Shown here in pieces: positions 44,630 through 60,850 of a DNA stretch of 64,000 bases (its first letter is position 1; the number at the start of each line of letters is the position of its first letter). The notes under the pieces are model-generated. The model had not been told where the DNA came from, did not search any database, and worked only from the letters and a program-made list of their open reading frames with translations. A program made the translations under genes and the position numbers. Source of the DNA: a virus (lineage: Duplodnaviria; Caudoviricetes). The stretch lies in the IMG/VR virus record IMGVR_UViG_3300042691_038938, one strand, 5' to 3'.

Positions 44630-45322
44630 ATGTACGTAAAGGAGGTAATGGCAACCTTGCAATGCAGCTATAACGCCTGCCGCAAGTGGAGGAACGAGGG
44701 TAAGCTAAGGACCACCAAGATGCCCAACGGCAAGGTGATGTACTGGGACGACGACGTCTACGCCCTACTGGGCAAGAAGATCCAGAAGGAGAACTGGTCG
44801 GTCGCCTACTGTAGGGTACCGGGGACTACGGAGTCCGACCGGAGACTCATGCTCCGCCAGCAGCAACTGATCCGGGAGTGGTGTGCCAAGCGTGGAGTGT
44901 CTCTAGAAAAGCTCTACGACGACTGGTGCCCGTCTACTGACTTCTCCATGGACGGGAGACCCGGGTTACATGAGCTCATACAGGATGTCATAAAGAAAAA
45001 GATAAGCGTGATCGTGGTGGAGACCCCGGACAGGCTGGCTCGAGTCGGTTGGGAGATCTTTCCCTCCTGGTTCAAGTATTATGGGGTGGAGGTAATAGTC
45101 ATCAACAGTGCTATAGTGGTGCCAGAGTATCAGCAGGAGCAGGAGAGGGATCTCACGAATCTCTTGTTAAAGGCGGGCGTGGACAGGCTGGATAAGCTAG
45201 GAGCTGAGAGCCTACCGGTACCCAGAAAGCGGGAGAGGCGCAAGCACCCGGGCAAGATCACCCCTGACTGGGAGGACAAGCCAGAGACCCCATCAGATCG
45301 AGACCTGTCAGACCTCATGTAG
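44630..45322 (+). CDS. IS607-type serine recombinase homolog lacking the catalytic Ser
   Basis: N-terminal MerR-like HTH; AYCRVP in place of YARVS; VVETPDRLARVG. Confidence 0.8.
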   Translation: MYVKEVMATLQCSYNACRKWRNEGKLRTTKMPNGKVMYWDDDVYALLGKKIQKENWSVAYCRVPGTTESDRRLMLRQQQLIREWCAKRGVSLEKLYDDWCPSTDFSMDGRPGLHELIQDVIKKKISVIVVETPDRLARVGWEIFPSWFKYYGVEVIVINSAIVVPEYQQEQERDLTNLLLKAGVDRLDKLGAESLPVPRKRERRKHPGKITPDWEDKPETPSDRDLSDLM

Positions 45323-47437: not shown

Positions 47438-48556
47438 TTAATTTTCGTCGTCCCCTTCGATTTCTACTAGGTCCTGATCCTCCTCTTCTACGGAGTGATC
47501 GTCGAACGTTCTGCCCAAGAAGACCTGCTCAAAGCGTAGGCTCAAGTCCTGCTGACGCAAGGTCTCGACGTTCTCCATTGAGCGTAGCTCCTCGGTCTCA
47601 GCATAGCGTGTAACGTCGTACACCACCTGACCTTCCTCGTTCAGCTTGTAGTAGAGACGTTTGCCCGTACCGCTGCCGCCTCGACGGTTCTTTGAGAACT
47701 CTAGGTAGCGTAGGCCAGTCGAGTCGAAACGGATCTCAACCATTGCCGTAGTTGCATGCTTAAGATATGTAGAACCAACGTACTGCCCTCCCTTCGTCAT
47801 GTGCTGGATGGCCAACACTGCACAGCCGTTCTTCTCTGCCGCATCGATCATCATGTTAGTCATCCACGACTCGGCTTTAGTTGACTTCCAACCATGTACT
47901 TCCTTGAGCTTTACTAACACGTCCTGATAAGAGTCTAAGAGGATGATGTCGTAGTCGCCGTTGAAGGTCTTCTCGAGGACGGGTGCAAGCTGATTAGACT
48001 TCACGTAATCCATGAGCAAGAGTGTGGGCACGCGACCGATGGCAGGGGTCTTACGATAGTAGAACATGATGTCGTTTCTGGTCATCTCGCTGGAGATGTA
48101 TAGGATCCTTGCCTCGGGGTTTTGGTCCACGACAGATGCCAAGAGATCCAGCATGACAGTTGACTTACCGACGCCTGACTCGCCGATGACGATGTTCACA
48201 GTACCGCCGTAGATACCGCCACCTTCCTCATGGTCTGAGAAGAGATCGTCGATCTTTTTGCCTGTACGGAAGAGACCGAAGTTAGGGAACTCCATGTCCT
48301 CCACCCTTACTATCTGAGGCTCTACTACGGAGTGAACTGATGCAGTATGTTCGCTGCGTTCGTAGTGACCCTCGGCCACGATCTTCTTGATGACTCCATT
48401 GAAGAGCCCGTATGAGATCTCCTCGGGCCTTTCACCCGCGTCGAATTCCTGGAACAGGTCCAGTACCTTTGAGCGAGTCGGCACGACTCCTTCGTAAGCG
48501 TCATTAAACCACTGTCTAACGATTTGCTCCTTCTTTCCTCCTGTGATTTCAATCAT
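47438..48556 (-). CDS. RadA/Sms-like RecA-fold ATPase
   Basis: GESGVGKST, LYISSE, ILLDSYQ, QHMTKGGQYVG, KNRRGG; no Zn finger or Lon-like domain. Confidence 0.75.
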   Translation of the reverse strand: MIEITGGKKEQIVRQWFNDAYEGVVPTRSKVLDLFQEFDAGERPEEISYGLFNGVIKKIVAEGHYERSEHTASVHSVVEPQIVRVEDMEFPNFGLFRTGKKIDDLFSDHEEGGGIYGGTVNIVIGESGVGKSTVMLDLLASVVDQNPEARILYISSEMTRNDIMFYYRKTPAIGRVPTLLLMDYVKSNQLAPVLEKTFNGDYDIILLDSYQDVLVKLKEVHGWKSTKAESWMTNMMIDAAEKNGCAVLAIQHMTKGGQYVGSTYLKHATTAMVEIRFDSTGLRYLEFSKNRRGGSGTGKRLYYKLNEEGQVVYDVTRYAETEELRSMENVETLRQQDLSLRFEQVFLGRTFDDHSVEEEDQDLVEIEGDDEN

Positions 48557-49047: not shown

Positions 49048-49131
49048 CTGCTTTTGTTTTTAAGTTTATATAGTAAATATACTACTAAAGAACCCAAATG
49101 TACAATCCTGGCGTGAGTAAATTCGGGAGAC
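49048..49131 (-). promoter_or_regulatory. Repeated early-type promoter element 1
   Basis: GTCTCCCG...AGGATTGTACA-N17-TATATTTAC...TTAAAAACAAAAG. Confidence 0.85.
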
Positions 49132-49171
49132 GCGACCTGCCTGGACTAGCTCCATTACTACGGAGTAAAAC

Positions 49172-49200
49172 AAAAAAGCCAGCCTCTTGCGAAGCTGGCC
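49172..49200 (-). terminator. Rho-independent terminator
   Basis: GCCAGC-N10-GCTGGC plus T6 on -. Confidence 0.75.
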
Positions 49201-49225
49201 GACCCGGAAAAGCAGGAACCTAGGT

Positions 49226-49411
49226 CTAATTACTTATCTGAACTCCAACAGTCTGCCACTGTGTTATGGTGTACTCAAAGCCTTCCTCTTCGGGCATGGC
49301 CATCTTTAATCTCTCTCTGACATCAAGCGCTCTGGCAACCGTAGTTATCGATCTCTTATCAGTGGAGAAGTAATGCTTCCCATCCTTGCTTACGTTTATC
49401 TCGTACCACAT
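49226..49411 (-). CDS. Hypothetical protein
   Basis: 61 aa, coupled to upstream gene. Confidence 0.7.
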   Translation of the reverse strand: MWYEINVSKDGKHYFSTDKRSITTVARALDVRERLKMAMPEEEGFEYTITQWQTVGVQISN

Positions 49412-49416
49412 GTCTC

Positions 49417-49848
49417 CTAAAATTCGATTACTCCTGAGATTACTAGATTGAGTGGAACAGGGTCCTCATCATTGTGAGAGGTCTTCACGAGCCACTCTCC
49501 CTCCTGAGTGAACAGGTATCCATACTCCTCGATGTCTGACTTAAAGAATGAAGAGACTGACTCGTCCTTACGTGGATCAGTGTCGTCCTCACCTCGGTCT
49601 CTGCCGTATGCGACTGTGACTCCCTTCTCCCGCTGGTCATAGTCGAAGCCGTGTGGGCCGGTTGGGTGCACCTTCTTGCCCAGTAGCGATAGGTCTCCTA
49701 GAGCGATGAGGTCCTTCACCTTCTCTGGGTCTTGATAGTGGGTGTGTAGGATGAACCCGTTGTATTCGATGTAACCGTCACTGTGACAGTATACTGAGAG
49801 AACTGAGCCGTCCTCTTGCTCCATTGCGATTCTTGATCTTGTTGCCAT
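49417..49848 (-). CDS. Conserved phage hypothetical protein
   Basis: MATRSRI...SVYCHSDGY. Confidence 0.75.
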   Translation of the reverse strand: MATRSRIAMEQEDGSVLSVYCHSDGYIEYNGFILHTHYQDPEKVKDLIALGDLSLLGKKVHPTGPHGFDYDQREKGVTVAYGRDRGEDDTDPRKDESVSSFFKSDIEEYGYLFTQEGEWLVKTSHNDEDPVPLNLVISGVIEF

Positions 49849-49933
49849 GCTGCTTTTGTTTTTAAGTTTATATAGTAAATATACTAAGATTCTTGTGACT
49901 TGTACAATCCAGTGGACCTAAAAGTCGGGAGAC
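49849..49933 (-). promoter_or_regulatory. Repeated early-type promoter element 2
   Basis: Same consensus; spacer identical to elements 3 and 4. Confidence 0.85.
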
Positions 49934-49941
49934 GGTGCCGC

Positions 49942-50175
49942 CTACTGCGGGAAGAGAAAGTCCTGCACTTCTTTGAGTAGACCCGGATACTCGTCCTCAC
50001 TGAAGGTGTCTCCATACTGGTCAGTCATGAAGGTATCGATGACAGCTTCTTCCTGAGTCAAGATCTCGGTGTAGACAATCGTGATCTCCTCTTCCTCGTC
50101 GTTTAATATGTATTCACGTACGATTACTGGGTTCTTTTCTTCTTGCTTGAGCAATTCAAATCTTGGTGTTTTCAT
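49942..50175 (-). CDS. Acidic hypothetical protein
   Basis: Between two promoter elements. Confidence 0.7.
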   Translation of the reverse strand: MKTPRFELLKQEEKNPVIVREYILNDEEEEITIVYTEILTQEEAVIDTFMTDQYGDTFSEDEYPGLLKEVQDFLFPQ

Positions 50176-50257
50176 CTGCTTTTGTTTTTAAGTTATAAGT
50201 AAATATACTAAGATTCTTGTGACTTGTACAATCCTGCCGTGACAGAAATCAAGAGAC
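50176..50257 (-). promoter_or_regulatory. Repeated early-type promoter element 3
   Basis: Same consensus. Confidence 0.85.
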
Positions 50258-50283
50258 GTTATTCCTCTTCCGTTACATGGTTT

Positions 50284-50499
50284 CTAAATTTCAATAATAT
50301 CAACATCAGTTACTTCAAACGAAAATATATCAAGCTCATCAATCACTTCCTCGTCATATCCGTATTCATCTGCCATCATCTTTTTAACCTCATCTTCGGC
50401 CTGCTCGGACTCTTTGCATTTGATATGAAAGATAACCGGGCTATCTAGCCCAACTGAGTATCCCTCATCTGATACTACTACGCAAAATAATTTCTTCAT
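50284..50499 (-). CDS. Acidic hypothetical protein flanked by the direct repeat
   Basis: 71 aa. Confidence 0.7.
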   Translation of the reverse strand: MKKLFCVVVSDEGYSVGLDSPVIFHIKCKESEQAEDEVKKMMADEYGYDEEVIDELDIFSFEVTDVDIIEI

Positions 50500-50581
50500 G
50501 GTTTCTGCTTTTAAGTTATAGTATAAATATACTAAGATTCTTGTGACTTGTACAATCCTGCCGTGGCAGAAATCAAGAGAC
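50500..50581 (-). promoter_or_regulatory. Repeated early-type promoter element 4
   Basis: Same consensus. Confidence 0.85.
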
Positions 50582-50582
50582 G

Positions 50583-50789
50583 CTATTCCTCTTCCGTTAC
50601 ATGGTGAGCCTCGATCTCGAAAGAGTTGTTCTCTAAAAAAGAGTTGAGTGCGGGCTGCTCTCCCTTAAAGTAGACGATTGCGGATGGGCCTCCTGCGCCA
50701 AGATGAGTCCACTCCAATCCTTCGTACTCTAGCTCGTGTATTACTGAGTCCACCTTTTCTGGGTCTACAAAAATGCTGAATGCTTTCAT
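50583..50789 (-). CDS. Hypothetical protein
   Basis: 68 aa. Confidence 0.7.
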   Translation of the reverse strand: MKAFSIFVDPEKVDSVIHELEYEGLEWTHLGAGGPSAIVYFKGEQPALNSFLENNSFEIEAHHVTEEE

Positions 50790-50868
50790 GGGTTTGATTT
50801 AAGTTATAAGTAAATATACAAAGACTAATTAGTATTGTACACTTCTACGGAGTAAACTTTCGGGAGAC
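50790..50868 (-). promoter_or_regulatory. Repeated early-type promoter element 5
   Basis: Consensus, with CTACGGAGT between the -35 and the GAGAC box. Confidence 0.85.
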
Positions 50869-50872
50869 CTGG

Positions 50873-51142
50873 CTAGAAGGTTGCCTTAGTCTCCATCGCG
50901 AAGACGAGCTCCACGCCCCACGGAAACTTATAGGCTCTGAACCCACCTGTCCCTGTAGACATAGTCTCTTCTGAATTCTGCATTGCGTTGACTAGAAGAA
51001 TCGCCGCAGTTCTTTTTAAATCATCTATCGTCGGCATCTCACCTCTCCATTTCCAATCAACCTGTACCATGTAGTCGTGCACCTTTTGAAAATCGAATCT
51101 ATCGATGATCTGTCCTATCGTCTCTGCGTGTTTCTGTTCCAT
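50873..51142 (-). CDS. Hypothetical protein
   Basis: FDFQKVHDYM...W...STGTGGF. Confidence 0.7.
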   Translation of the reverse strand: MEQKHAETIGQIIDRFDFQKVHDYMVQVDWKWRGEMPTIDDLKRTAAILLVNAMQNSEETMSTGTGGFRAYKFPWGVELVFAMETKATF

Positions 51143-51151
51143 CTTTCCTGC

Positions 51152-51361
51152 TTATTGGTTTTCTAATCGGGTTAACTTCTTGTTTAGGGTCTTTAGCCTG
51201 CCCTTGAGTCTCTTGGTCTCGAGCCTACGTAGGTAGGGACCGTGATTGTAGGTGCTGCCTTCCCATGCCATGGTCCAAACAGTCTTATCGTTCTTTAGGA
51301 ACTCTATCCTTGCGTCGATCTTTTGGATGAGGTCTAATATCTCCTGTCTAGTCATCGCCAC
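51152..51361 (-). CDS. Hypothetical protein
   Basis: Coupled by stop/start overlap. Confidence 0.65.
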   Translation of the reverse strand: MAMTRQEILDLIQKIDARIEFLKNDKTVWTMAWEGSTYNHGPYLRRLETKRLKGRLKTLNKKLTRLENQ

Positions 51362-51603
51362 TACTTTAGAATGAATACTGTCTCTTCCTCGTGGATGCCC
51401 TCTTCTGTGTCCAGTCCAAGTCCTTCCATGATGGGCTCAAACTCTTCCTGATTCTTGACCAGGACCATGAATCCAGGATCGTCGGTAATATCCTCTCCAC
51501 AGTTTAGGAAGCCCAAATAACCTGAGCTATTAGGATTGAGTTGGAAATCGTTCTTTACCTTGAGTAGGAATAGAACACCGGCTTTGAATTCTTCTTTAGT
51601 CAT
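51361..51603 (-). CDS. Hypothetical protein
   Basis: Directly after promoter element. Confidence 0.7.
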   Translation of the reverse strand: MTKEEFKAGVLFLLKVKNDFQLNPNSSGYLGFLNCGEDITDDPGFMVLVKNQEEFEPIMEGLGLDTEEGIHEEETVFILK

Positions 51604-51685
51604 CTGCTTTTGTTTTTAAGTTATAAGTAAATATAATAAAAACTTGGGTATGAGTACAATCCTATGATGGGTAAATTCAGGAGAC
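51604..51685 (-). promoter_or_regulatory. Repeated early-type promoter element 6
   Basis: Same consensus. Confidence 0.85.
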
Positions 51686-51701
51686 TCGGTGCCAAGTCGG
51701 C

Positions 51702-51998
51702 TCAGTAACCCTCTTCTCCAAAAAACGCGGTTGCCGTTATGCTATATGACTTTCCTTCAAGCATAAATGAGATTTCCCAGATATCATCAAAGTGATTCTT
51801 TCTGCCGGTTAGCTCTACCTCTGTTTCCATTAGCTCTACTAATTTCTCAAGGGTGCTAGTTCCATAATCGTCGGCTCCTATACTTTGGGCATGGACTCCA
51901 TCAACTAACATAGTATTCGTTACTTGCCAGTTCTCCATCCAATTCGATCCCATGTACCAATCAAAGAGTCCATCAATCGTTGTTGTTGCGGTATTCAT
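51702..51998 (-). CDS. Hypothetical protein
   Basis: 98 aa. Confidence 0.7.
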   Translation of the reverse strand: MNTATTTIDGLFDWYMGSNWMENWQVTNTMLVDGVHAQSIGADDYGTSTLEKLVELMETEVELTGRKNHFDDIWEISFMLEGKSYSITATAFFGEEGY

Positions 51999-52058
51999 CT
52001 GCTTTTGTTTTTAAGTTATAAGTAAATATAATAAACGCTTGAGCATTTGTACAATCCT
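51999..52058 (-). promoter_or_regulatory. Repeated early-type promoter element 7 (no GAGAC box)
   Basis: -35, -10 and leader conserved. Confidence 0.8.
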
Positions 52059-52067
52059 GTTGAAAGA

Positions 52068-52985
52068 TTATTCGTTTATTTGAAATCCGCTAGCGTACTT
52101 AAGAAATTCCTCAAACTCGATTCCTAGTCTCTCCATTACTAACGTGCTTAGTTTGATGGGTCTCCCTCCATATTGAGTAGATTCACTGGCAGGGTCGACT
52201 ACTCTTATGATAAAAGGGGACAGCTCATCTTCTTGTAAAATCCTAATCAGTCTAGAAGTAGTTGAGCAAAAGGTTGTCCCGAAAAAGAAATGCCATGGAC
52301 GACCATTGCTTTTTAGGAATACCTCTTCTTTGATCTCAAAGACGGACTCCAATAGCTCCTTGACCTGGATCTTTCCATATGGATCCTTTTTCCCGTATTC
52401 CACATCGATCACGTCAATTAGTTCGTCGTCAACACCAAAAGATTCTTTAAGATTAGCGAGTGCATCTTTTCTTACCATGAAGTCCTCATCCACGCATAAC
52501 TTGACTAGAAGATCCTTCGGTGTCATTTCATGTTTAGCCGCTCGGCATCTCTCAACCCAATTAAAAGATTTGGAAAATCTCTCCAATATCTCGAGCCGAG
52601 TGGAGTCAAGAGTGTTTTGGTGACGAAGTATTTCGGATTGTAGATCCGGCTCCTCCTTTGCAAACTTAGAAAGAATTTCAGCTGGACAGAAAGGGGAGCT
52701 CACGTATTTCTTCCTTGTCGCAAGTGACTTCACGTTAGGGTCAAACTTCTCCTCCTTAGTCGAGACCTCGATTGATTCGATCTCATAGGTTCCAATGGAC
52801 ATCGACCGTGAATCTCTTCCGTATGAGTCGATCACGTTACACATGTATTCATGGATCTTTTGATTGGCCACTTTCTCGGCATCCTCTTGGCTTTCTCCAT
52901 GAACCATGAAAGTCTTAGTTGGCATAAAGGACGGGCGTCGTTGTGCGCTCGATGTTCTCTTAAATTGTACGCGATACCTTTTCAT
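52068..52985 (-). CDS. Protein with HEAT/LRV-like repeats
   Basis: CPAEILSKFA, TPKDLLVKLCVDEDFMVR. Confidence 0.6.
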   Translation of the reverse strand: MKRYRVQFKRTSSAQRRPSFMPTKTFMVHGESQEDAEKVANQKIHEYMCNVIDSYGRDSRSMSIGTYEIESIEVSTKEEKFDPNVKSLATRKKYVSSPFCPAEILSKFAKEEPDLQSEILRHQNTLDSTRLEILERFSKSFNWVERCRAAKHEMTPKDLLVKLCVDEDFMVRKDALANLKESFGVDDELIDVIDVEYGKKDPYGKIQVKELLESVFEIKEEVFLKSNGRPWHFFFGTTFCSTTSRLIRILQEDELSPFIIRVVDPASESTQYGGRPIKLSTLVMERLGIEFEEFLKYASGFQINE

Positions 52986-53065
52986 ACTTCTGTTTTTAAG
53001 TTATAAGTAAATATAACCAAGAATCAGGCATTTGTACAATCCTGGCGTGGGTAAAATCGGGAGAC
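52986..53065 (-). promoter_or_regulatory. Repeated early-type promoter element 8
   Basis: Same consensus. Confidence 0.85.
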
Positions 53066-53068
53066 GCT

Positions 53069-53233
53069 TTACTCCTGCTCTGCAATGGAGCTCACCTCAT
53101 CGAGCAGCGCAATCATCTGAGAAAAGACGAACTCTTCCACCTCGGTCTCGGCGCCTTTCAGCTCCTCTCCATATGCAAGCTTTCTGCCCGTAATAAAGTC
53201 TCTCACTGCTTGTAATCTTTCTTTATCGTTCAT
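53069..53233 (-). CDS. 54-aa hypothetical protein (not in ORF track)
   Basis: MNDKERLQAVRDFITGRKLAYGEE...; fills the gap exactly. Confidence 0.6.
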   Translation of the reverse strand: MNDKERLQAVRDFITGRKLAYGEELKGAETEVEEFVFSQMIALLDEVSSIAEQE

Positions 53234-53234
53234 C

Positions 53235-53492
53235 CTAATAATATTTGATCTTTACTATCGTTACTTGTTGTTCTCCCTTCAGGCTCTTAAGGGTATAAGC
53301 ACCCTTTACCTTAATCGTCTCTAGCACCTTGCGATAGCTAGAGTCAGGATCAGCCACTCTTCCCAAGAACATGCCGACTTCATATGCCTTCTTCAGGTTG
53401 GAGCAGACGGCAAGCGTCTCCACGAGTTCTTGCTCCCACTGGAGACCGGTCTCCCTATTGCTCATTACCAAGTAAACCTCTCTTCTCTTCAT
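53235..53492 (-). CDS. Hypothetical protein
   Basis: Operon packing. Confidence 0.65.
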   Translation of the reverse strand: MKRREVYLVMSNRETGLQWEQELVETLAVCSNLKKAYEVGMFLGRVADPDSSYRKVLETIKVKGAYTLKSLKGEQQVTIVKIKYY

Positions 53493-53730
53493 CCTCTATC
53501 TTTTTTTGTAGGTCCCTAATGAAAGCACAGTCCTCATACTTTTCTTCGCTCTCAAAGTGTCTTAACATCGTCTTTAGAGCTGAGATCTTTTGTGAGACTT
53601 GGTGACCGTCCTCTACTGCCAGGTCGGGAAACCTTTTTAGAGACTCCAGCACCAGCTGCATGAAGAGTGATGGGTCCCGCTCTCGTATCTCCAATAGAGA
53701 TGCCAAGAACTCTTCATCCTGCGGATTCAT
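53455..53730 (-). CDS. Hypothetical protein with UvrB/UvrC-like C-terminal motif
   Basis: EKYEDCAFIRDLQKKI. Confidence 0.55.
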   Translation of the reverse strand: MNPQDEEFLASLLEIRERDPSLFMQLVLESLKRFPDLAVEDGHQVSQKISALKTMLRHFESEEKYEDCAFIRDLQKKIEDEEKRGLLGNEQ

Positions 53731-54031
53731 CCCTCTCCTTCTTTATGGCGGTTAGTACTTGTTCCTCGATCTCTAATACCTTCTCCTCGCCTACTCTCTC
53801 TGAGAGCTCAAGCTTGAGACGATCGTATGCCGATTGTGCACCCTCTATCTTGCTGGTAAAGAAGGGAAGGGGCGTCCCTTTTCCTAGCTCCTTAGCCAGG
53901 TCGAGGTAGATCGCAGTTGATTGGAAAGCTTCTGCCAGTTGGCGTGAGCTCCTCTTAAAGAAGTCTCGGAGACCCTGTTCTTCCAGGTAGTGCTCCTCAT
54001 CTTCGTAAAAAACTATAAATTGTGTGTTCAT
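53714..54031 (-). CDS. Hypothetical protein
   Basis: 105 aa. Confidence 0.7.
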   Translation of the reverse strand: MNTQFIVFYEDEEHYLEEQGLRDFFKRSSRQLAEAFQSTAIYLDLAKELGKGTPLPFFTSKIEGAQSAYDRLKLELSERVGEEKVLEIEEQVLTAIKKERDESAG

Positions 54032-54033
54032 GA

Positions 54034-54195
54034 CTACGGAGTAAAAAGTAAGTAAATCGGCCAGAGAATCAATATCGCCAGCGTCTGTATCGGACCGTTC
54101 ATCTCATATCCCTTGTTACTTAGGTAGAGTAGAGTGGTAAAGCCTGCTGCGGTCCAGAGCAGCAGGCTTAGTATTATGATTATGGTTGTTATCAA
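54034..54195 (-). CDS. Possible 53-aa two-TM peptide (TTG start overlapping the sigma stop)
   Basis: ITTIIIILSLLLWTAAGFTTLLYL...LAILILWPIYLLFTP; its stop lies inside the polar motif. Confidence 0.4.
   Translation of the reverse strand: MITTIIIILSLLLWTAAGFTTLLYLSNKGYEMNGPIQTLAILILWPIYLLFTP
54140..54169 (-). terminator. 11-bp hairpin after the sigma gene
   Basis: AAGCCTGCTGC-N8-GCAGCAGGCTT; short U-tract. Confidence 0.45.
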
Positions 54196-54905
54196 TTGAT
54201 TCGCATTTTTTCTAGCGATGCCTTCACGATCTGGCTGACACGAACGTTTGACATGTCGTAGCGCTCAGCGATCGCATCAGTCGGCATCTCATACTCTCGG
54301 TCTATGCCGAAGTAGTCCATCACGATCAGGCGGTCACGTTCCTTTAGGGAGCTTAAGACCTTCTTTACCTTGAACTTGATGTCGTCGATCTCGATCTCAG
54401 ACTCAGTTTGGGATGGAGAGTGTAGGATGAGGTCGCCTAGAGACGTGCCGCCTTCTTCTCCTACTCGATCGTCGATGTAGGCACGCTTGGGTTCTTCGAC
54501 CTCCTCATGATTCATCTTGGCCTTGTAGATCTCGTATTCCTGGTTGTGAGGCAGTCTCACTATCCGGCCCGTCTTAGCGACTGCTTCGTTAAGTCGTTTA
54601 CGAATCCATAGGCTCGCGTATGAAATGAATCTCTGACCCTCTTTGGGCTTGAAGTTCTTTGCGGCTTCCATCAAGCCGATGTTGCCCTCTTGGATGAGGT
54701 CGTCGATGGGCACTCCTTGACCTATGTGGCGGTTTGCAAGCTTCACCACGAATTTTAGGTTGGCCTGTACGAGCTCGTTAAGTGCCATACGATCTCCCTC
54801 TTGGATTAGTTTTACCAGTTCGATCTCACGATCGTGCGTCACTGGCGTGCTCTTTTGAATAGTACGAAAGTACTTTGGCAAGTTTTCTGAAGTTTCAAAT
54901 CTCAT
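54192..54905 (-). CDS. Sigma70-family factor, Bacteroidota RpoD-like, shortened region 3
   Basis: ANLKFVV, DLIQEGNIGL, RFISYASLWIR, IVRLPHNQ, C-terminal HTH RVSQI. Confidence 0.9.
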   Translation of the reverse strand: MRFETSENLPKYFRTIQKSTPVTHDREIELVKLIQEGDRMALNELVQANLKFVVKLANRHIGQGVPIDDLIQEGNIGLMEAAKNFKPKEGQRFISYASLWIRKRLNEAVAKTGRIVRLPHNQEYEIYKAKMNHEEVEEPKRAYIDDRVGEEGGTSLGDLILHSPSQTESEIEIDDIKFKVKKVLSSLKERDRLIVMDYFGIDREYEMPTDAIAERYDMSNVRVSQIVKASLEKMRIN

Positions 54906-54967
54906 GTTCTTTATGTTTTTAAGTTATATAGTAAATTTAACAAATTACTCTGATTCTGTACAATCCT
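54906..54967 (-). promoter_or_regulatory. Repeated early-type promoter element 9 (no GAGAC box)
   Basis: -35 lies in the last codons of 54945-55154. Confidence 0.75.
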
Positions 54968-55154
54968 GTTCGTTTAATTTTCCGCTTTTTACCAGAGACC
55001 AATACTGCTCTTCCGTGATCCGAACTCCACCGAGTAGATCGAGTTGCACGCAGTCTGAACAGGTCACTGCCTCTGAATTGATGTCCACCTTAGGTACGAT
55101 GTTACCGCATCTCTTACACGCTAACTGCTTAAATGTCTTGCTTAAATTCTTCAT
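54945..55154 (-). CDS. Zn-ribbon protein
   Basis: CKRCG...CSDC. Confidence 0.7.
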   Translation of the reverse strand: MKNLSKTFKQLACKRCGNIVPKVDINSEAVTCSDCVQLDLLGGVRITEEQYWSLVKSGKLNEQDCTESE

Positions 55155-55178
55155 CTTTTCTGCTTTTTTCTTTTTATA

Positions 55179-55415
55179 TTATACTCTGTTTTTTGGCTTA
55201 AGTTTAGCCTTTTCAAATCGTTCTAGCTCTATCTCGGCTCTGAGCTTGGCTCCCTCTAGGGTCTCCTCCCACTCATCTGCAGGTAGGAACTTGGAGACCT
55301 CATCGATCCGGATGTAGATCGAGAGCACCTTCTCTTCGCGGTTCATTAGGATCCAACATCGGACCTTGTCCTGTTGACCCTCGACTATCCTGTCTCTGAC
55401 TGGTCCCCACTTCAT
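55179..55415 (-). CDS. Hypothetical protein
   Basis: ATGA overlap. Confidence 0.65.
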   Translation of the reverse strand: MKWGPVRDRIVEGQQDKVRCWILMNREEKVLSIYIRIDEVSKFLPADEWEETLEGAKLRAEIELERFEKAKLKPKNRV

Positions 55416-55645
55416 ATGTGGGAGGTTTTTGAGTATTCAGTAAAGTACCAATTAGTCAGCGTCGCGTGATCCTCACCGCTTAGTCGACTCGTCTCGTCGG
55501 TGATTCCATAGGTGACCTTACGTACGAAGTCGTCAGAATCAATTGCGATCTCAAACATCGTGTGGAGAAAGTCTAGGATCTCTTCGAGCTCGACCTGAGT
55601 ATAGATCCCCTCATATTCTGTCGTTATCGTCTTCATCGCAATCAT
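55412..55645 (-). CDS. Hypothetical protein
   Basis: ATGA overlap. Confidence 0.65.
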   Translation of the reverse strand: MIAMKTITTEYEGIYTQVELEEILDFLHTMFEIAIDSDDFVRKVTYGITDETSRLSGEDHATLTNWYFTEYSKTSHI

Positions 55646-55767
55646 ACTTTAGCTCCACAATCACTGCATCTCACTAGCTGTATTCCCGATACGTGTCGTA
55701 CTGCCACATAGGTTCTCTTGTGCTCGCACTTAGGTTTTTCTACCTGCTTTTCTTTTGAATTTTCCAT
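55642..55767 (-). CDS. 41-aa Cys-containing peptide (not in ORF track)
   Basis: MENSKEKQVEKPKCEH...RCSDCGAKV; right after promoter, ATGA overlap downstream. Confidence 0.65.
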   Translation of the reverse strand: MENSKEKQVEKPKCEHKRTYVAVRHVSGIQLVRCSDCGAKV

Positions 55768-55849
55768 TTTGCTTTGTTTTTAAGTTATAAGTAAATATAA
55801 TTATTATTCTGCAATAAGTACAATCCTGGTGCGATAAAAATCGGGAGAC
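55768..55849 (-). promoter_or_regulatory. Repeated early-type promoter element 10
   Basis: Same consensus. Confidence 0.85.
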
Positions 55850-55868
55850 CCTGTATAACAGCACAAAG

Positions 55869-55889
55869 AAAAGGCTCCGCTTGGGAGCC
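55869..55889 (-). terminator. Rho-independent terminator
   Basis: GGCTCC-N5-GGAGCC plus T-tract on -. Confidence 0.7.
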
Positions 55890-55896
55890 GTGTTTC

Positions 55897-56364
55897 TTAT
55901 CCGTGATAAGATTCAATCTTGAACCAGATCTCGTAGCCGTTTGCGATCCTGTCCTGTCGACCGTTTCGGGTCCAGAACCAGTCGTGAATGAACTCGCCCT
56001 TGATCTTCTTAACGTCGATCACGAACGGTGTCTCATCAAGGTATCCCAAGACTACTTCGACTGGCTCCTTAAACTCAAGCACTGCCTCATGACTCCACCT
56101 GTTCTCTCGGATAATCTTTACTCCATCGTAAAACTCGATTTGAGTCTTGTCCTTTTTTCTGGTGAGACGGTTAATCCAGTGGCTTGCTCCCTCCTCATCC
56201 AGTGCATTCGCGTCTCTCGTGTAGGATGCCACGGTTGGATAAGTACCATCATCAGTATCCTGAGATATTTCGAATAACATGCAGTTATTACCAAAGTCCA
56301 TCTTAATTCCTTTAAGCGGGCCGTCTCCATCGAGCAGGCTCCAGATGCTGTGTGTTGTTTTCAT
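55897..56364 (-). CDS. Hypothetical protein
   Basis: 155 aa. Confidence 0.7.
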   Translation of the reverse strand: MKTTHSIWSLLDGDGPLKGIKMDFGNNCMLFEISQDTDDGTYPTVASYTRDANALDEEGASHWINRLTRKKDKTQIEFYDGVKIIRENRWSHEAVLEFKEPVEVVLGYLDETPFVIDVKKIKGEFIHDWFWTRNGRQDRIANGYEIWFKIESYHG

Positions 56365-56447
56365 GCTGCTTTCGTTTTTAAGTTATAGTTAAATATAATC
56401 ATTAAGTCTGAATCTTAACAATCCGGTAGCGAAAACTTTTAAGAGAC
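56365..56447 (-). promoter_or_regulatory. Repeated early-type promoter element 11
   Basis: GTCTC box overlaps the stop of 56439-56828. Confidence 0.8.
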
Positions 56448-56828
56448 ATGTTCCGCCTCTTCCTTCAAGTAGTTATCGAAGTTGACTAATAGGAACTGGC
56501 CGTAGCTTTTAAAGTACTCTTCAACGATTCGTTCTATACGACGGAGAGAACTCGCTCTGACCTTTGACTCGTCTCCTTCGCAGACAAGCACCCACCACCC
56601 GTTACTGCGACCGGCAAAGCTCCAATCAGTAATGAACGGATAGTCACTCTCCATTATCTTCTCGAAACACTGTTCTGAGTGATAGTTAGTATAGAACCCG
56701 TCCTCCCACTCGTATTGTAGGAGTTCCTCATGAGCTTCAGTTAGGGGCAAAGTAGGAAACTTCACGTCGAACTCAATGGTGAAGTCACAGTGAAAGTCTC
56801 TTTTGTGTCTGTTAAATACTGCTTCCAT
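56439..56828 (-). CDS. Hypothetical protein
   Basis: WSFAGRSNGWWV. Confidence 0.7.
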   Translation of the reverse strand: MEAVFNRHKRDFHCDFTIEFDVKFPTLPLTEAHEELLQYEWEDGFYTNYHSEQCFEKIMESDYPFITDWSFAGRSNGWWVLVCEGDESKVRASSLRRIERIVEEYFKSYGQFLLVNFDNYLKEEAEHVS

Positions 56829-56844
56829 TTCTTCTTGTTTTAGG

Positions 56845-57090
56845 TTATGAAAATCTTAAAAATTCTACTGATCCTGTATGGATGAACGCAATCGATCCGT
56901 CTCCGAACTGGATGCCGATTGTGTGTTCGTCGGCTGAACAGACGGTCACGTCGATCTCGTCTCCTTTCGCGAAGGCCTCCTCGACCGGTTTGTGTAGCTC
57001 GATATCCTCGTTCTCAAAGACCTCAATGAGAGTGTCTCCTAAGAACATGAATACTACGTCGTCCCCTTCTTCAAAGTCTTGTGTTTTCAT
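56845..57090 (-). CDS. Acidic hypothetical protein
   Basis: 81 aa. Confidence 0.7.
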   Translation of the reverse strand: MKTQDFEEGDDVVFMFLGDTLIEVFENEDIELHKPVEEAFAKGDEIDVTVCSADEHTIGIQFGDGSIAFIHTGSVEFLRFS

Positions 57091-57172
57091 GCTTTTAAGT
57101 TTTTAAGTTATAGTTAAATATAATACTAATCTTTGAGTCGTGAAAATTGGGCGGCGACAAAAGTAGGGAGAC
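57091..57172 (-). promoter_or_regulatory. Repeated early-type promoter element 12
   Basis: Same consensus, divergent -35. Confidence 0.8.
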
Positions 57173-57189
57173 GCGTCGCCCAGACCGGA

Positions 57190-57534
57190 TCAGACTTGAT
57201 CTAGGACGAGGTCGATGAATTTTTGAAAGTCGTCTTTCTCTAGGTCATCAAAGGAGACGGGAGCCTCGATCAAGGCTTGCATCATTAGACGAGCTTCTTC
57301 CTCAGTATTCGCAGCGACTGGGAAAGGCGTAGCATCCCAAAAGAACTGAATGAGCCCTTCCTCATAGATGCTGATTATCGGCGGACACGCTTCGTCAGGA
57401 AAATCGATAATGGGTTCGTAACAAGTAAAGTGGCCAAACTCCTCGTTCTCACATCCCTCATCCTCCCTAGAATCAAAGGTTTGAACGAGCTTGATTCCAA
57501 ATAATTCTTCTACTTTTTCTTTTACTTCTTGCAT
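57190..57534 (-). CDS. Acidic hypothetical protein
   Basis: 114 aa. Confidence 0.7.
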   Translation of the reverse strand: MQEVKEKVEELFGIKLVQTFDSREDEGCENEEFGHFTCYEPIIDFPDEACPPIISIYEEGLIQFFWDATPFPVAANTEEEARLMMQALIEAPVSFDDLEKDDFQKFIDLVLDQV

Positions 57535-57614
57535 CTTTTTGTTTTTAAGTTATAGTTAAATATAACAACTATTCTCCAATCTATAAAATCCTGGTTTGGG
57601 AAAAGTCGGGAGAC
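57535..57614 (-). promoter_or_regulatory. Repeated early-type promoter element 13
   Basis: Same consensus. Confidence 0.85.
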
Positions 57615-57644
57615 TCTTTTGACAGGTCTTGACAGAGCACAAAG

Positions 57645-57670
57645 AAAAAGGGACCGATTTCTCGATCCCC
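57645..57670 (-). terminator. Rho-independent terminator
   Basis: GGGATCGA-GAAA-TCGGTCCC plus T-tract on -. Confidence 0.7.
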
Positions 57671-57713
57671 GTTCCTACAACTTAAAACAACTTCTTTGTT
57701 ACTACGGAGTAAA

Positions 57714-57965
57714 CTATTTAAGTCCCTTTGCCCCGTTGTATATCTTCTCTGCCTTTGTATAATCGTACTCAGCAGCTATTAGTGCTCCTATCTCCTGGGA
57801 GAAATTGGTCCTAAAGAATTTTAGATTCTCCGGAGTGTCGTTCACGTAGGGCACCATCTCGTGCAGGACGGGTAACCTCTCCTTTAGACTCAGTCTCTTG
57901 AGGTACTGTCTTACCGTGTCCTGTGCCCCGACCTTGATCAGGTTTATCGCTTTGTCCACTCTCAT
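57714..57965 (-). CDS. Hypothetical protein
   Basis: ATGA overlap. Confidence 0.65.
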   Translation of the reverse strand: MRVDKAINLIKVGAQDTVRQYLKRLSLKERLPVLHEMVPYVNDTPENLKFFRTNFSQEIGALIAAEYDYTKAEKIYNGAKGLK

Positions 57966-58276
57966 GCTACGTATCCTTGGTTATAGACTAAGTATACATA
58001 AAATCGGATGGCGTTTAAATTGATTGAGTCGGCTCTTCCCACTGTCTCCATCAAGTTGTTATCGACTATCGCCTGCACAAAGCTTCCGCCTGGAAATCCC
58101 ACTCCCCACTTGGTGCTCAGTATGGAGACGCCGATCCTAGTGACGTGTTCTCTACTTTCGTTGAACGCTATCGCCTGTCCAAATGCGAGGTCGTGTCCCC
58201 ACGAGTAATACTCATCGATTCGCTTGGAAACGACCTCTGCTATTCTCTCCTCTTGTCCTTCAGTGTATGCTGCCAT
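57962..58276 (-). CDS. Conserved phage hypothetical protein
   Basis: PGGSFVQAIVDNNL...VGRADSIN. Confidence 0.7.
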   Translation of the reverse strand: MAAYTEGQEERIAEVVSKRIDEYYSWGHDLAFGQAIAFNESREHVTRIGVSILSTKWGVGFPGGSFVQAIVDNNLMETVGRADSINLNAIRFYVYLVYNQGYVA

Positions 58277-58335
58277 CTTTTTTGTTTTAAGTTATATAGT
58301 AAATATACTAAATTCTCTAGTGCTTGTACAATCCT
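58277..58335 (-). promoter_or_regulatory. Repeated early-type promoter element 14 (no GAGAC box)
   Basis: -35, -10 and leader conserved. Confidence 0.8.
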
Positions 58336-58696
58336 AGCGTAAACTCTTTAAGAAATCTTTGTCGACTCTGTGGAGTTCTATCTCTGCAATCTGGAGACCG
58401 TCAAACCCCATTCCTATTAGAGCCTGCTTAAATGGTACCCATACGTTCTCTTTGTGTGGTACGCCGCTTGCATATCCATGATAATCTCTCGTGCCCCATA
58501 CGGCAACGACTGCCTTGGCTCTTCGTACCAATTTAACGGGGTCTTTGATGAGCTTAGACTGCTTCTCAGCTAGACTCTGGATAGGCGAGCCATTACCATA
58601 AAACCAGTTTCGCATGCCGTGTTTGTAGAAGTCCATCTCCAGTGCACGGTGATAGTCCTTTGTTTGAGGTTCAATTGATGTTACCTGTAAATTCAT
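58334..58696 (-). CDS. Hypothetical protein
   Basis: Start moved to MNLQVTS after the promoter leader. Confidence 0.7.
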   Translation of the reverse strand: MNLQVTSIEPQTKDYHRALEMDFYKHGMRNWFYGNGSPIQSLAEKQSKLIKDPVKLVRRAKAVVAVWGTRDYHGYASGVPHKENVWVPFKQALIGMGFDGLQIAEIELHRVDKDFLKSLR

Positions 58697-58777
58697 TGTG
58701 CTTGTTTTTAAGTTATAAGTAAATGTAATAATAATAACTGATAATGTACAATTAGTCGGCCCTAAAAGCCGAGAGAC
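58697..58777 (-). promoter_or_regulatory. Repeated early-type promoter element 15
   Basis: Same consensus. Confidence 0.8.
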
Positions 58778-58792
58778 GCTGGGATACTGGGC

Positions 58793-58819
58793 AAAAAAAG
58801 ATCCCGATTTCTCGGGATC
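58793..58819 (-). terminator. Rho-independent terminator
   Basis: GATCCCGA-GAAA-TCGGGATC plus T7 on -. Confidence 0.8.
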
Positions 58820-58829
58820 AAATTGAGTC

Positions 58830-59321
58830 TTATAATGGCGGACCTCCGAACCACCATCTACCTCGTTGATATGTTTCACAAGGACCAAGTCGATCTCGAA
58901 TCTCTTGAGTACATTTTGGATTGTTTAGCACGTAATAGCGAATCGCATCGTTCTTCTCATGGCTTAGGATCTCAAGAAGGTTCTCTGGGATCTCCTCATT
59001 TTTTGCGAGCATACGTTTGACGTCGGGCCGATCGTTAATGAGATTGGCTAGGACGTCCGCTGGAGTCGACGGATTTCCTGCGACTCTTGATCGAATCACA
59101 CTGCTTCGATCCTTCGAAAGCTTTCGTAAGACGTCGCTTGGACACGTTCGGTTTTTGGCAACGATATCCTTGAAAGTGGTCGAGCTCAATGACTCCAATG
59201 CCATTGGGTCGGATGTCGTCTCCGCGATGGTGCTTAACCGTACACCCTTGTCGATCGAGGTCAATGTACGATCTCTTTTGATTTTTTTAATTTGGTCTAA
59301 GACGCTCATGTTTTCTTGCAT
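58830..59321 (-). CDS. Leucine-rich-variant (LRV/HEAT-like) repeat protein
   Basis: VAKNRTCPSDVL, VAGNPSTPADVL, LAKNEEIPENLL, VLNNPKC. Confidence 0.75.
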   Translation of the reverse strand: MQENMSVLDQIKKIKRDRTLTSIDKGVRLSTIAETTSDPMALESLSSTTFKDIVAKNRTCPSDVLRKLSKDRSSVIRSRVAGNPSTPADVLANLINDRPDVKRMLAKNEEIPENLLEILSHEKNDAIRYYVLNNPKCTQEIRDRLGPCETYQRGRWWFGGPPL

Positions 59322-59404
59322 AGCTTTTAAGCTTTTAAGTTATGTATAAATATAACAATAATAACGAGTAATGTACAATCCTGGCCGAAAGACTTTTGGG
59401 AGAC
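59322..59404 (-). promoter_or_regulatory. Repeated early-type promoter element 16
   Basis: Same consensus. Confidence 0.85.
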
Positions 59405-59412
59405 CTGTAGAT

Positions 59413-59943
59413 CTATTTCACAAAGAGCGTGCAATTGGTGTAAGGAAAGGAATGTTCTCCAAGCTTTACCTCAAGCTCCTCGAGGTCGAACCCCATCTCC
59501 TCACAAACAGAAGATATTGTCTCAGGACTAGCTTCATTTGGAACCTGGAACCCGCTCACCTTAAGAAACTTGAGAGCTGCATCTAGCCTAGCTTGCTCCT
59601 CATTAAGGGACTCAACGGTCGTCACCATCGATGCGGTGCCTAGGGGCAGGCTAGAGTAGCGGTTTGCCAGTATCGCAACTGAGAAAGTCTCCGTCTCATC
59701 AGGAACGGTAGGAACTTCAGCTCCCTCAAGGAAATTGAGAAGATCACCTACTTTCTCGACGTCCTCTAATTCTTCAGGAATCTTTACTCCAAACTTTTTC
59801 TCGAGCTTTATGATTACCTCGACGATGTCCAATGCATCCATTCTAAGATCGTCCATTAGGCTCGTGTTCTCGTCGATCTCAGCGCACACTGCATACTCCT
59901 CAACGTGAAGTCTAATTATCTCAAATACTTTTTCTTTTAACAT
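59413..59943 (-). CDS. Acyl-carrier-protein-like domain (Ser to Ala) fused to an unknown domain
   Basis: EKVFEII...DDLRMDALDIVEVIIKLEKKFGVKIPEE...KVGDL. Confidence 0.8.
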   Translation of the reverse strand: MLKEKVFEIIRLHVEEYAVCAEIDENTSLMDDLRMDALDIVEVIIKLEKKFGVKIPEELEDVEKVGDLLNFLEGAEVPTVPDETETFSVAILANRYSSLPLGTASMVTTVESLNEEQARLDAALKFLKVSGFQVPNEASPETISSVCEEMGFDLEELEVKLGEHSFPYTNCTLFVK

Positions 59944-60024
59944 GGTGGTAGGTTTTAAGTTATAAGTAAATATAACTACGATCCCTGAATAAGTACAATC
60001 CTGTGATGGGTAAATTCAGGAGAC
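59944..60024 (-). promoter_or_regulatory. Repeated early-type promoter element 17
   Basis: Same consensus. Confidence 0.85.
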
Positions 60025-60068
60025 CAGTTGGATCCAGTCTTGATCCAACGTACTACGGAGTAAACGAC

Positions 60069-60091
60069 AAAGGGTCAGCTCCCGCTGACCC
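60069..60091 (-). terminator. Repeated terminator module A
   Basis: GGGTCAGC-GGGA-GCTGACCC-TTTG. Confidence 0.75.
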
Positions 60092-60115
60092 CAGTCTCTA
60101 ACCTAAAACAACTTC

Positions 60116-60310
60116 TTAATATTCGCCTTTGTCGTATTCCTTTTTCAAGAGTTCAACGATCATTTCTCTCTCCTCCTCTAACATTCTGTTGTTGGCGAAG
60201 GAAACTAGGATGTCGGCAACGGTTAGCCCATGTTCTCCTGAGTCTACCATTCCTACTAGGATTTCTCCAAGGACGTCGTTTCGTGTTGATTCGTTTGCTG
60301 ATTTTTCCAT
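60116..60310 (-). CDS. Hypothetical protein
   Basis: 64 aa ending EY-stop. Confidence 0.65.
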   Translation of the reverse strand: MEKSANESTRNDVLGEILVGMVDSGEHGLTVADILVSFANNRMLEEEREMIVELLKKEYDKGEY

Positions 60311-60318
60311 GGGTTCTA

Positions 60319-60708
60319 TTATTTAAAGAGTGCAATTATCTTATTCTCAAGCTCACGATCGAACGCGATATCATTATTACAATCGTCATCGAACTCGTGA
60401 CTAACACATCCCGCTAAGAGGTCGAGAGCGTTTGATTCCATCTCCACTCCTTCCTCGTCCTCCCACTCGAAGTTGAAGAAGTCTCTAGAATCTCCATGCA
60501 CCACCACATCGATGGTCCCATCCTCGCGTACCCTCCATGCAGGATAGTGACTATTAAGAACGAACTCTAGTGCTTCAGCCTCAGCATCACTCTCGCACTG
60601 CTCTTCCCAATTGGCAATGAAGCTATTGACATGATTGGTGATGGCAACGTACAGTGCACTGTCGATCTTCTCTACCTCATTGTCGTTAAGAAACCTTTGA
60701 TTTGTCAT
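60319..60708 (-). CDS. Acidic hypothetical protein
   Basis: 129 aa. Confidence 0.7.
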   Translation of the reverse strand: MTNQRFLNDNEVEKIDSALYVAITNHVNSFIANWEEQCESDAEAEALEFVLNSHYPAWRVREDGTIDVVVHGDSRDFFNFEWEDEEGVEMESNALDLLAGCVSHEFDDDCNNDIAFDRELENKIIALFK

Positions 60709-60790
60709 AGTGTTTAAGTTTTAAGTTATAAGTAAATATAACAAATGCTTTCAAATAAGTACAATCCTGTGCTCAGCAAATTTGGGAGAC
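60709..60790 (-). promoter_or_regulatory. Repeated early-type promoter element 18
   Basis: Same consensus. Confidence 0.85.
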
Positions 60791-60822
60791 ACTCAGGCTT
60801 GAAGTTGAAAGGAGTTGAAACG

Positions 60823-60845
60823 AAAAAGCGGAGATTTCTCTCCGC
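60823..60845 (-). terminator. Rho-independent terminator
   Basis: GCGGAGA-GAAA-TCTCCGC plus T5 on -. Confidence 0.75.
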
Positions 60846-60850
60846 CTCGA

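Follow-up and report, generated by a model that had tools for sequence, protein, structure and literature searches.

The 64,000-nucleotide stretch analyzed here, hereafter the window (IMG/VR record IMGVR_UViG_3300042691_038938; Duplodnaviria, Caudoviricetes), contains an array of small phage genes in which an 82-bp direct repeat brackets the gene for a 71-residue (71-aa) protein. Each copy of the repeat combines the letters of the end of the neighboring 68-aa gene with a complete promoter. The repeat is probably a recombination scar that arose by homologous and microhomology recombination between the repeated promoter elements of the array, and not by a site-specific system. From the letters that tell the copies and alleles apart, the duplication is best read as older than the diversification of the strains that carry it, with loss of the bracketed gene as the recent event.

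The two copies lie at 50524-50605 (copy A) and 50200-50281 (copy B), are identical at 80 of 82 positions and recur with a period of 324. An earlier reading of the window, here called the original prediction, had described this repeat around the gene at 50284-50499 as differing at two positions, and exactly two differences were recovered: G at 50566 against A at 50242, and C at 50583 against T at 50259. The latter pair corresponds to the third base of the stop codon of the 68-aa gene, which reads TAG in copy A and TAA in the relic in copy B. On the gene strand, each copy consists of ACCATGTAACGGAAGAGGAATA(G/A), an upstream box, the -33 box, an 18-nt spacer and the -7 box. The predicted contents of the repeat, namely a promoter core, a box and a tail of the 68-aa gene that is coding in one copy and noncoding in the other, agree with the alignment. 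Copy A includes the last seven codons and the stop codon of the 68-aa gene (AHHVTEEE-stop, 24 nt), and copy B holds the same tail letters, ending in TAA, as noncoding sequence directly after the stop codon of the 71-aa gene. By their position ahead of the open reading frames (ORFs), copy A is predicted to drive the 71-aa gene and copy B the 77-aa gene downstream of it.

The likeness of the two copies is exceptional within the array. Among the 231 pairs that can be formed from its 22 promoter copies, identity is 97.6% for A and B, whereas the runner-up pair reaches 67% and the median is 51%; the likeness of A and B lies far beyond what chance or promoter conservation would give. Over the 24 nt outside the conserved promoter element, A and B are 95.8% identical, against a median of 29% for the 231 pairs. 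A third promoter, copy C, precedes the 143-aa gene. The original prediction had assigned the same spacer to the element at 49877-49910, and this was found to be correct: a 35-nt stretch of copy C (49876-49910), covering the -7 box, spacer and -33 box, is identical to A and B, and the region of its upstream box differs. This spacer is thus identical in three consecutive promoters and is found in no other copy of the array.

The bracketed gene belongs to a family that occurs at many other sites. The 71-aa protein has 26 homologues at 59-100% identity, and their genes, here denoted by protein length, stand in different orders: 98 > remnant of 80 > 73 > 89 in contig L022 (85% amino acid identity), 51 > 71 > 80 in L030 (97%), promoter > 73 > 80 in L031 (92%), 127 > 71 > 96 in L032-35 (68%), and 154 > 71 > 111, upstream of a sigma gene, in L025-29 (59-66%). 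Judged from these gene orders, the 71-aa cassette is mobile within the array. In L030, 97.4% identity to the window extends over 234 nt, from decamer to decamer (window 50506-50273), and the remaining alignable pieces of that contig have 75-88% identity and an order that is scrambled with respect to the window. The string AGAAACCATG has only two occurrences in the window, at the two ends of the cassette; likewise, AAACCATG is found in the window only at the two ends of the 71 ORF, and in the loci of relatives almost only at the ends of the 71-family ORF.

Comparison of these contexts locates both joints. In L022, L031, L032 and L034, the family gene ends in ...GAAATT TAG AAACC ATG, and the ATG opens the next gene, which belongs to different families in different phages. 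The same cassette 3' end is present in L033 and L035, and altogether the trailing start codon of the cassette was seen behind the 71-family gene in five other genomic contexts. In the window, TAG AAACC ATG is followed instead by TAACGGAAGAGG, which is the tail of the 68-aa gene (read CAC CAT GTA ACG... in copy A). As ACCATG comprises the only letters common to both partners, the 3' joint must lie inside this hexamer. The 5' joint zone is marked by the alignments, in which the identity of A and B ends abruptly just after the -7 box TATATTTA. Because these two joints bound the repeat, the repeat is exactly that part of the resident sequence which lies between a joint in the promoter core and one in a microhomology.

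The 3' joint has also created a start-stop mini-ORF, ATG TAA, at 50273-50278 of the minus strand, five bases past the stop codon of the 71-aa gene; its ATG is the orphaned start codon of the former downstream neighbor of the cassette. In L022 (2925-2990), the 80-aa gene directly ahead of the 71-family gene has been cut to a 20-codon ORF (MTVEEFKAG-IHAEETVFILK) by an internal in-frame deletion. A target-site duplication left by a transposon was considered for the repeat and excluded, given that the duplication measures 82 bp, has no flanking inverted repeats and encloses an insert that codes only for a 71-aa protein without a family.

The population context was obtained from contigs found by exact-protein look-ups of the 68-, 71-, 77- and 143-aa proteins in ENA, JGI and NCBI, and from 24 public runs examined as k=31 unitigs; the diagnostic letters lie at least 42 nt from the A/B divergence point. 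None of the joints or loose ends in the unitigs bears on a circle junction, and two skips whose sides are 20-22 nt of shared promoter core were discounted. At least 10 contigs from the three sources carry both repeat copies with the same two fixed differences, and every contig with the 71-aa gene at this site has TAG/C in A and TAA/T in B. In the unitigs of run X1, the 71-aa gene has a depth of 24.5, with flanks at 23.3 and 22.3, and in those of run X5 its depth is 7.6, with a flank at 7.7. The repeat is a genuine structure and no assembly artefact.

Among near-identical strains, whose DNA is otherwise 99.6-100% identical, four or five structural alleles were distinguished. The deletion of 324 bp for which the original prediction suggested searching is among them. 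L014 (JGI 3300031784) equals the window minus exactly 324 bp, with flanks of 1,686 and 1,600 nt that are 100% identical, and its single copy joins the body of the 68-aa gene to TAA/T, both letters of copy B, and to the leader of the 77-aa gene. The same allele is present in run X6, where a 533-nt unitig connects the 68-aa gene with the promoter and has both letters of copy B, and where the 71-aa gene is without cover. A further ENA contig, seen through protein data only, has the 84-nt spacing from the 68-aa to the 77-aa gene that characterizes the deletion allele.

That the repeat or its deletion allele should be an assembly artefact, a doubt raised in the original prediction itself, has a negligible probability. 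Some contigs do break inside the repeat (L006, L008, L018, L021), a sign of difficulty for the assembler, but the megahit (ENA), JGI and NCBI assemblies agree on the structure, and so do the k=31 unitigs. The exact repeated stretches measure 22, 16 and 43 nt, below the final k of these assemblers, and the X6 unitig requires reads that span both the unique 68-aa gene body and the TAA letter. The other doubt, that both copies might be fixed across relatives, is ruled out by the polymorphism for presence and absence.

More distant relatives, which the original prediction had also proposed to compare, lack the gene at this site. In L009, L010 and L015 (~80% relatives; LR796670.1 and others), the 68-aa gene is followed directly by the homologue of the 143-aa gene, with the letters TAG/T, and in L022 the two genes are likewise adjacent. 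This direct order in L009, L010, L015 and L022 points to the older state, and both 324-bp units would then be gains of the lineage of the window. The single promoter of L010 is composite, with an upstream half of A/B type and a downstream half of C type.

Two histories could link the window to the allele without the unit. In the one named by the original prediction, a 324-bp circle carrying the gene and its promoter entered an empty site of the L014 type by a single, recent crossover, and L014 would be the surviving unoccupied ancestor. The exact geometry of circle integration, a repeat as long as the shared homology, is what is seen, and an empty site does exist in L014. Mini-circles are also documented for PeSL elements, the repeated early promoters with stem-loops in the hyperplastic regions of T4-type phages (Arbiol et al. 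2010, PMC2839356), in which they were detected by inverse polymerase chain reaction for RB49 and phi1 (PMC2839356). The diagnostic letters are TAG/T in the outgroup, TAG/C in copy A, and TAA/T in both copy B and L014. With L014 as the ancestor, two substitutions would have to fall within the 82 bp of copy A, one of which restores the outgroup letter, against none in the 3.3 kb of flanking sequence; if a crossover within the repeat's first 22 nt produced L014, the letters follow without any point change. In addition, the duplication is common to strains that differ elsewhere and hence is not fresh: the contigs that bear the 71-aa gene differ among themselves in 60-100-nt patches (L002, L003, L020). 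Lastly, a tail of the 68-aa gene on the circle presupposes the ACCATG joint. Recent integration of a circle is accordingly an improbable account, and the allele without the 324 bp is, on these letters, very likely a recent deletion rather than an unoccupied ancestor. Of the "fresh insertion scar" of the original prediction, the recombination scar thus stands and the freshness does not, since contigs that differ elsewhere have the same fixed letters and the empty allele has those of copy B.

A further pattern is found in L006 and L008, in which the 68-aa gene, copy A and the 71-aa gene are followed by a second copy with copy-A letters (TAG, C) at both sites. The relevant segments (L006:1900-2018 and L008:1330-1440, corresponding to window 50314-50205) both end at 50205, 5 nt before the A/B divergence. 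Such letters would be expected of a tandem 71-71 duplicate or of the junction of a 324-bp circle, that is, of the reciprocal of the L014 crossover, and the junction of a circle or tandem also counts in favor of the integration history above; the pattern could also be a conversion of B to A or an assembly tip. Somewhat speculatively, the 324-bp unit might even be cycling actively, with crossovers in the first 22 nt yielding the deletion allele and a reciprocal product (mini-circle or tandem 71-71) whose junction would be the one in L006 and L008; this is rather unlikely, and in such a case the conserved GTCTCCCGA box might help to pair the repeat copies. If it were true, both products of the excision of a promoter cassette would have been sighted at the population level for the first time in an uncultured phage that does not belong to the T4 group.

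The strain differences outside the repeat are clustered: seven fall within 59 nt of the 67-aa gene (L002; window 51232-51290) and six within 98 nt of the 143-aa gene (L003, L011, L020; window 49635-49732), a distribution that would be expected of short-patch recombination and not of clock-like mutation. Short patches of this kind are typical of conversion tracts, and together with the spacer that is identical in, and unique to, three consecutive promoters, and with the possible B-to-A conversion in L006 and L008, they could suggest that no insertion or duplication took place and that neighboring promoters were merely homogenized by gene conversion (concerted evolution). This account is very unlikely. 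The identity continues for 24 nt past the conserved element, where the 68-aa gene has its coding end, and stops exactly at the conserved 3' end of the cassette; conversion is unable to create a relic where homology was absent; and the alleles with and without the gene differ by exactly one repeat period.

Other alleles broke elsewhere. In L018 (ENA ERZ27247978), the end of an 80-aa gene of L022 type is joined directly to the 71-aa gene. Its first part (L018:1-130, corresponding to window 50506-50430 and upstream) has L022-type letters in the first ~70 nt of the 71 ORF, and past ~70 nt it continues as window-type sequence including the relic, copy B and the 77-aa gene. A 151-nt unitig of run X7 shares four variant letters with it, and the allele is interpreted as an ectopic crossover inside the mobile 71 ORF. 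In L038 (JGI 3300032093), a variant of the 89-aa gene with 82% identity is followed by a single promoter and then, from the 143-aa gene onward, by sequence that is 99.65% identical to the window, and the 68-, 71- and 77-aa genes are missing; the switch (L038:1-275, corresponding to window 49915 and upstream) falls in the promoter spacer or the -7 box. The claim of the original prediction that the array is dynamic is borne out by the deletion, L018 and L038 alleles together with the presence of the cassette at other array positions.

This scatter of breakpoints bears on a further explanation, an integron-like system in which a phage recombinase acts at the GTCTCCCGA box or the promoter element to excise and integrate cassettes. 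The GTCTC box is conserved in sequence in 19 of the 22 copies, and the array is adjoined by a serine-recombinase-like ORF (44630-45322) and a RecA-fold ATPase (47438-48556). The joints, however, occupy varied positions, namely ACCATG outside the element, the -7 box, the spacer (L038), the inside of the 71 ORF (L018) and decamer to decamer (L030), and the inverted repeats and attC-like structure that were looked for were not found. Site-specific movement of this kind is therefore hardly credible.

The recombination of promoter elements and microhomologies that is favored here can be laid out as a sequence of steps. The older arrangement would have been 68-aa gene, promoter, 143-aa gene. A 231-nt cassette for the 71-aa protein would then have arrived behind the 68-aa gene, with a 5' joint at the -7 box of the repeated promoter or immediately behind it and a 3' joint in the 6-nt microhomology ACCATG. 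As the position of the 3' joint in the resident sequence is 82 nt upstream of that of the 5' joint, the gene end and the promoter would have become present twice, and owing to this duplication the 71-aa and 77-aa genes each keep a complete promoter. Subsequently, each copy would have gained one substitution, and the repeat would have become a substrate for homologous recombination, in which a crossover in the first 22 nt deletes the 324-bp unit, as in L014 and X6.

The arrival itself could have followed either of two routes, which both fit the geometry and need the same two kinds of joint. The first would be one replicative event with two template switches, in which synthesis exits the resident strand in the promoter, copies the cassette elsewhere and re-enters at ACCATG, 82 nt behind its point of departure. 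In the second, an ACCATG-to-ACCATG deletion in a genome ordered 71 > 89 ... 68 > promoter would have produced a 71-relic-promoter block, which a crossover in the promoter core or the integration of a mini-circle would then have placed behind an intact 68-aa gene. As the relic already needs the ACCATG joint, this last step is the only place at which a circle is compatible with the data. The circle of the original prediction may thus account for the final step or the spread of the unit, not for the source of the relic, which lies in the illegitimate ACCATG joint.

Several points weigh against this reconstruction. The repeat, the alleles and the positions of the joints are observed, whereas the order of events is inferred and not directly observed, and the enzymology is likewise inferred. 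The strain differences are patchy imports, so that identical flanks do not translate into a recent deletion in a clock-like manner, which weakens that part of the argument. L014, X6 and the ENA contigs may come from overlapping samples, and the independence of the sightings of the deletion allele is to that extent uncertain. The three intergenic elements of the locus are without a stem-loop, unlike PeSLs. No donor with the exact leader of copy A was found when the leader-plus-start string was searched in IMG/VR. In the same database, the exact promoter string was unmatched, the 143-aa protein matched one distant relative only, and the 17-nt cassette end gave two unrelated chance matches. Exact-pattern scans of the JGI metagenome contigs for the junction between the end of the 71-aa gene and the relic matched nothing, in a collection without these samples that also missed the known JGI contigs. 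Finally, the model leaves two neighboring units of 324 bp to coincidence.

Those two units, with the 71-aa and the 77-aa gene, each measure exactly 324 bp with their promoter (promoter copies at 49876, 50200 and 50524); elsewhere in the array, the promoter spacings range from 287 to 1924 bp. The equal lengths may be a coincidence. Descent of the two proteins from a common ancestor as diverged paralogues, which would explain the equal periods, is not supported, BLASTP giving E = 0.035 over 15 residues and the coding parts not being alignable. Nothing beyond the equal periods supports the other route offered by the original prediction, a duplication followed by replacement. The coordinates of the locus are collected in Table 1.

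Table 1. Features of the repeat locus and its surroundings, in window coordinates.
Feature	Coordinates	Strand	Description
68-aa early gene	50583-50789	minus	ORF; last codons CAC CAT GTA ACG GAA GAG GAA TAG form the left part of copy A
Repeat copy A	50524-50605	minus	Tail of the 68-aa gene with TAG, GTCTC box, -33 box TTGTAC, 18-nt spacer, -7 box TATATTTA
Copy-A leader	50507-50523	minus	TACTATAACTTAAAAGC; variant unique among the 22 promoter copies
Mobile ORF cassette	50276-50506	minus	From AGAAACC-ATG (start of the 71-aa gene) to TAG-AAACC-ATG (stop codon and start codon of the lost neighbor)
71-aa gene, acidic, early	50284-50499	minus	ORF, bracketed by the repeats
ACCATG hexamer, 3' joint	50276-50281	minus	Common to the trailing start context of the cassette and the His-His-Val codons of the 68-aa tail
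Repeat copy B	50200-50281	minus	Noncoding relic of the 68-aa tail (TAA) and complete promoter
77-aa gene, second 324-bp unit	49942-50175	minus	ORF; missing from ~80% relatives
Promoter copy C	49876-49912	minus	Ahead of the 143-aa gene; -33 box, spacer and -7 box as in A and B
Surrounding array	49074-63815	minus	22 co-oriented ~110-nt element copies ahead of small genes

The 68-aa gene shows signs of movement of its own. The exact protein is encoded on more than 20 metagenome contigs, and the ~80% relative L009/L010 has it at 100% amino acid identity. Between L010 (5001-5207) and the window (50583-50789), neighboring genes are only 41-58% identical at the protein level, which indicates a recent exchange of this single cassette. 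On another contig, for which protein data only were available, the 68-aa protein stands in the order 125 > 68 > 98 > 80.

The array belongs to a large phage genome. Between 2 and 42 kb, the window encodes a DNA helicase, a DNA polymerase, a primase, a portal and baseplate-like proteins, and contigs on which these genes also occur are as long as 213-258 kb. The portal is a member of the T4-like portal family, and the proteins that match it best, at 30-38% identity, are those of huge uncultured phages and Prevotella Lak phages. A DNA search of deposited phages returned no match to the region; the public runs richest in the locus are lake and freshwater metagenomes, some of which carry the label "fungus metagenome". 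From ~42.6 kb to the end of the window, all genes lie on the minus strand, including a sigma-70-family gene (54192-54905), the RecA-fold ATPase and many small proteins without a known family. Beside the array, the ORF at 44630-45322 resembles serine recombinases and IS607-like proteins and is a putative recombinase.

The core promoter pattern occurs 22 times in 49074-63815, against 1.8 occurrences expected by chance. The composite element is ordered GTCTCCCGA box, ~14 nt, CAGGATTGTAC, N17-18, TATATTTA, leader CTTATAACTTAAAAACAAAAGCAG and ATG. Its promoter consensus, TTGTAC-N17/18-TATATTTA, agrees at only 9 of 12 positions with TTGACA/TATAAT, the sigma-70 consensus of E. coli, and the leaders of the array are A-rich and without GGAG, that is, without a Shine-Dalgarno sequence. 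The -33/-7 box pattern and an A-rich leader of this kind look like those of Bacteroidota promoters. The GTCTC box is kept in its 19 copies in sequence rather than in structure. Fold z-scores at the elements of the locus (-0.3, +1.2, -0.45 and -0.69) give no sign of a stem-loop, and no terminator-like sites were found in its three intergenic regions; a role of the GTCTC box region as a terminator stem was rejected on both counts. In L025 (2940-2965) and L028 (2938-2963), the promoter ahead of the 71-family gene does carry a CCCCGG...CGGGG stem around its -33 box, followed by a T-run, a PeSL-like composite of promoter and terminator that the copies of the window lack. In a second promoter pair of the array, 59967-60048 and 63785-63866, 21 of the 24 nt ahead of the GTCTC box agree (TGGATCAA..CTGGATCCAAC). 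These nucleotides lie outside the conserved element, and the shared stretch may be another shared gene end or terminator relic.

The AlphaFold2 model of the 71-aa protein has a beta-beta-alpha-alpha-beta fold with a pLDDT (predicted local distance difference test score) of 88. Searches of Pfam and PHROG assigned no family, and a fold search gave nothing at E <= 0.001 and a weak likeness to the small ribosomal protein LX/eL20 fold; an Atlas search returned features only (<=0.84) and was uninformative. The position of the gene behind an early-type promoter, taken alone, suggests a role in host takeover or counter-defense.

The closest known system is the PeSL-mediated modular shuffling described in T4-type phages, including PST and nt-1 (Comeau et al. 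2014, PMC4122927). In the pair RB49 and phi1, gene insertions and deletions are bounded by PeSLs, and the mapped crossovers fall in the interval from the -10 box to the ATG (PMC2839356). The present array shares with these systems the dense, co-oriented early-promoter elements of ~100 nt ahead of small ORFans (22 copies here), the gene-sized insertions and deletions between near-identical phages that leave one chimeric element (here L014, L038 and L010), crossovers between promoter boxes and ATG, and moved genes that each keep a promoter. Its promoter differs: the consensus is TTGTAC-N17/18-TATATTTA and the leader is A-rich and lacks a Shine-Dalgarno sequence, whereas PeSLs have the sigma-70 consensus. 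A further conserved box, GTCTCCCGA, lies ~25 nt ahead of the -33 box. In contrast to PeSLs, the copies at this locus have no stem-loop, one of the joints is a 6-nt microhomology outside the element, and the phage, by its portal, appears to lie outside the T4 group in the narrow sense. Moreover, PeSL mini-circles are known from RB49 and phi1, whereas the present locus is known from contigs and unitigs alone. The locus works like PeSL shuffling but fails two of its defining features, and it is a variant of that kind rather than a member.

Two broader classes of recombination also offer parallels. In the mosaic phages, the Hendrix/Juhala model of lambdoid phages with its morons, and De Paepe and colleagues in 2014, are said to invoke illegitimate or "relaxed homologous" recombination at gene boundaries. 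As in such mosaics, single genes are exchanged here between diverged genomes, the joints fall at very short shared sequences near start and stop codons, and relics of former neighbors remain; unlike in them, most exchanges are channeled by the repeated promoter element, and both partners of the joint can be read in the population data. As in repeat-mediated deletion or unequal crossing-over, L014 and X6 have lost exactly one period and kept one hybrid copy, and L006 and L008 show the letters expected of the reciprocal; the difference is that the crossover is confined here to 22 nt of perfect identity and that the reciprocal product is putative.

Early "hyperplastic" regions hold the genes with which phages take over the host and counter its defenses, and gene movement in them is known mainly from a few cultured T4-type coliphages. 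The present locus extends the same shuffling logic to an uncultured freshwater jumbo phage with a different type of promoter, and its scars name both former neighbors of the moved gene. Homology is used at two tiers, that of the promoter repeats and that of microhomologies on the scale of a hexamer at start and stop codons, and the locus would allow the rates of cassette gain and loss, as well as the existence of mini-circles, to be measured directly in environmental time series. It is a well-documented case of a known kind of plasticity of phage genomes, found here in a new lineage whose promoters are built differently, rather than a new kind of system.

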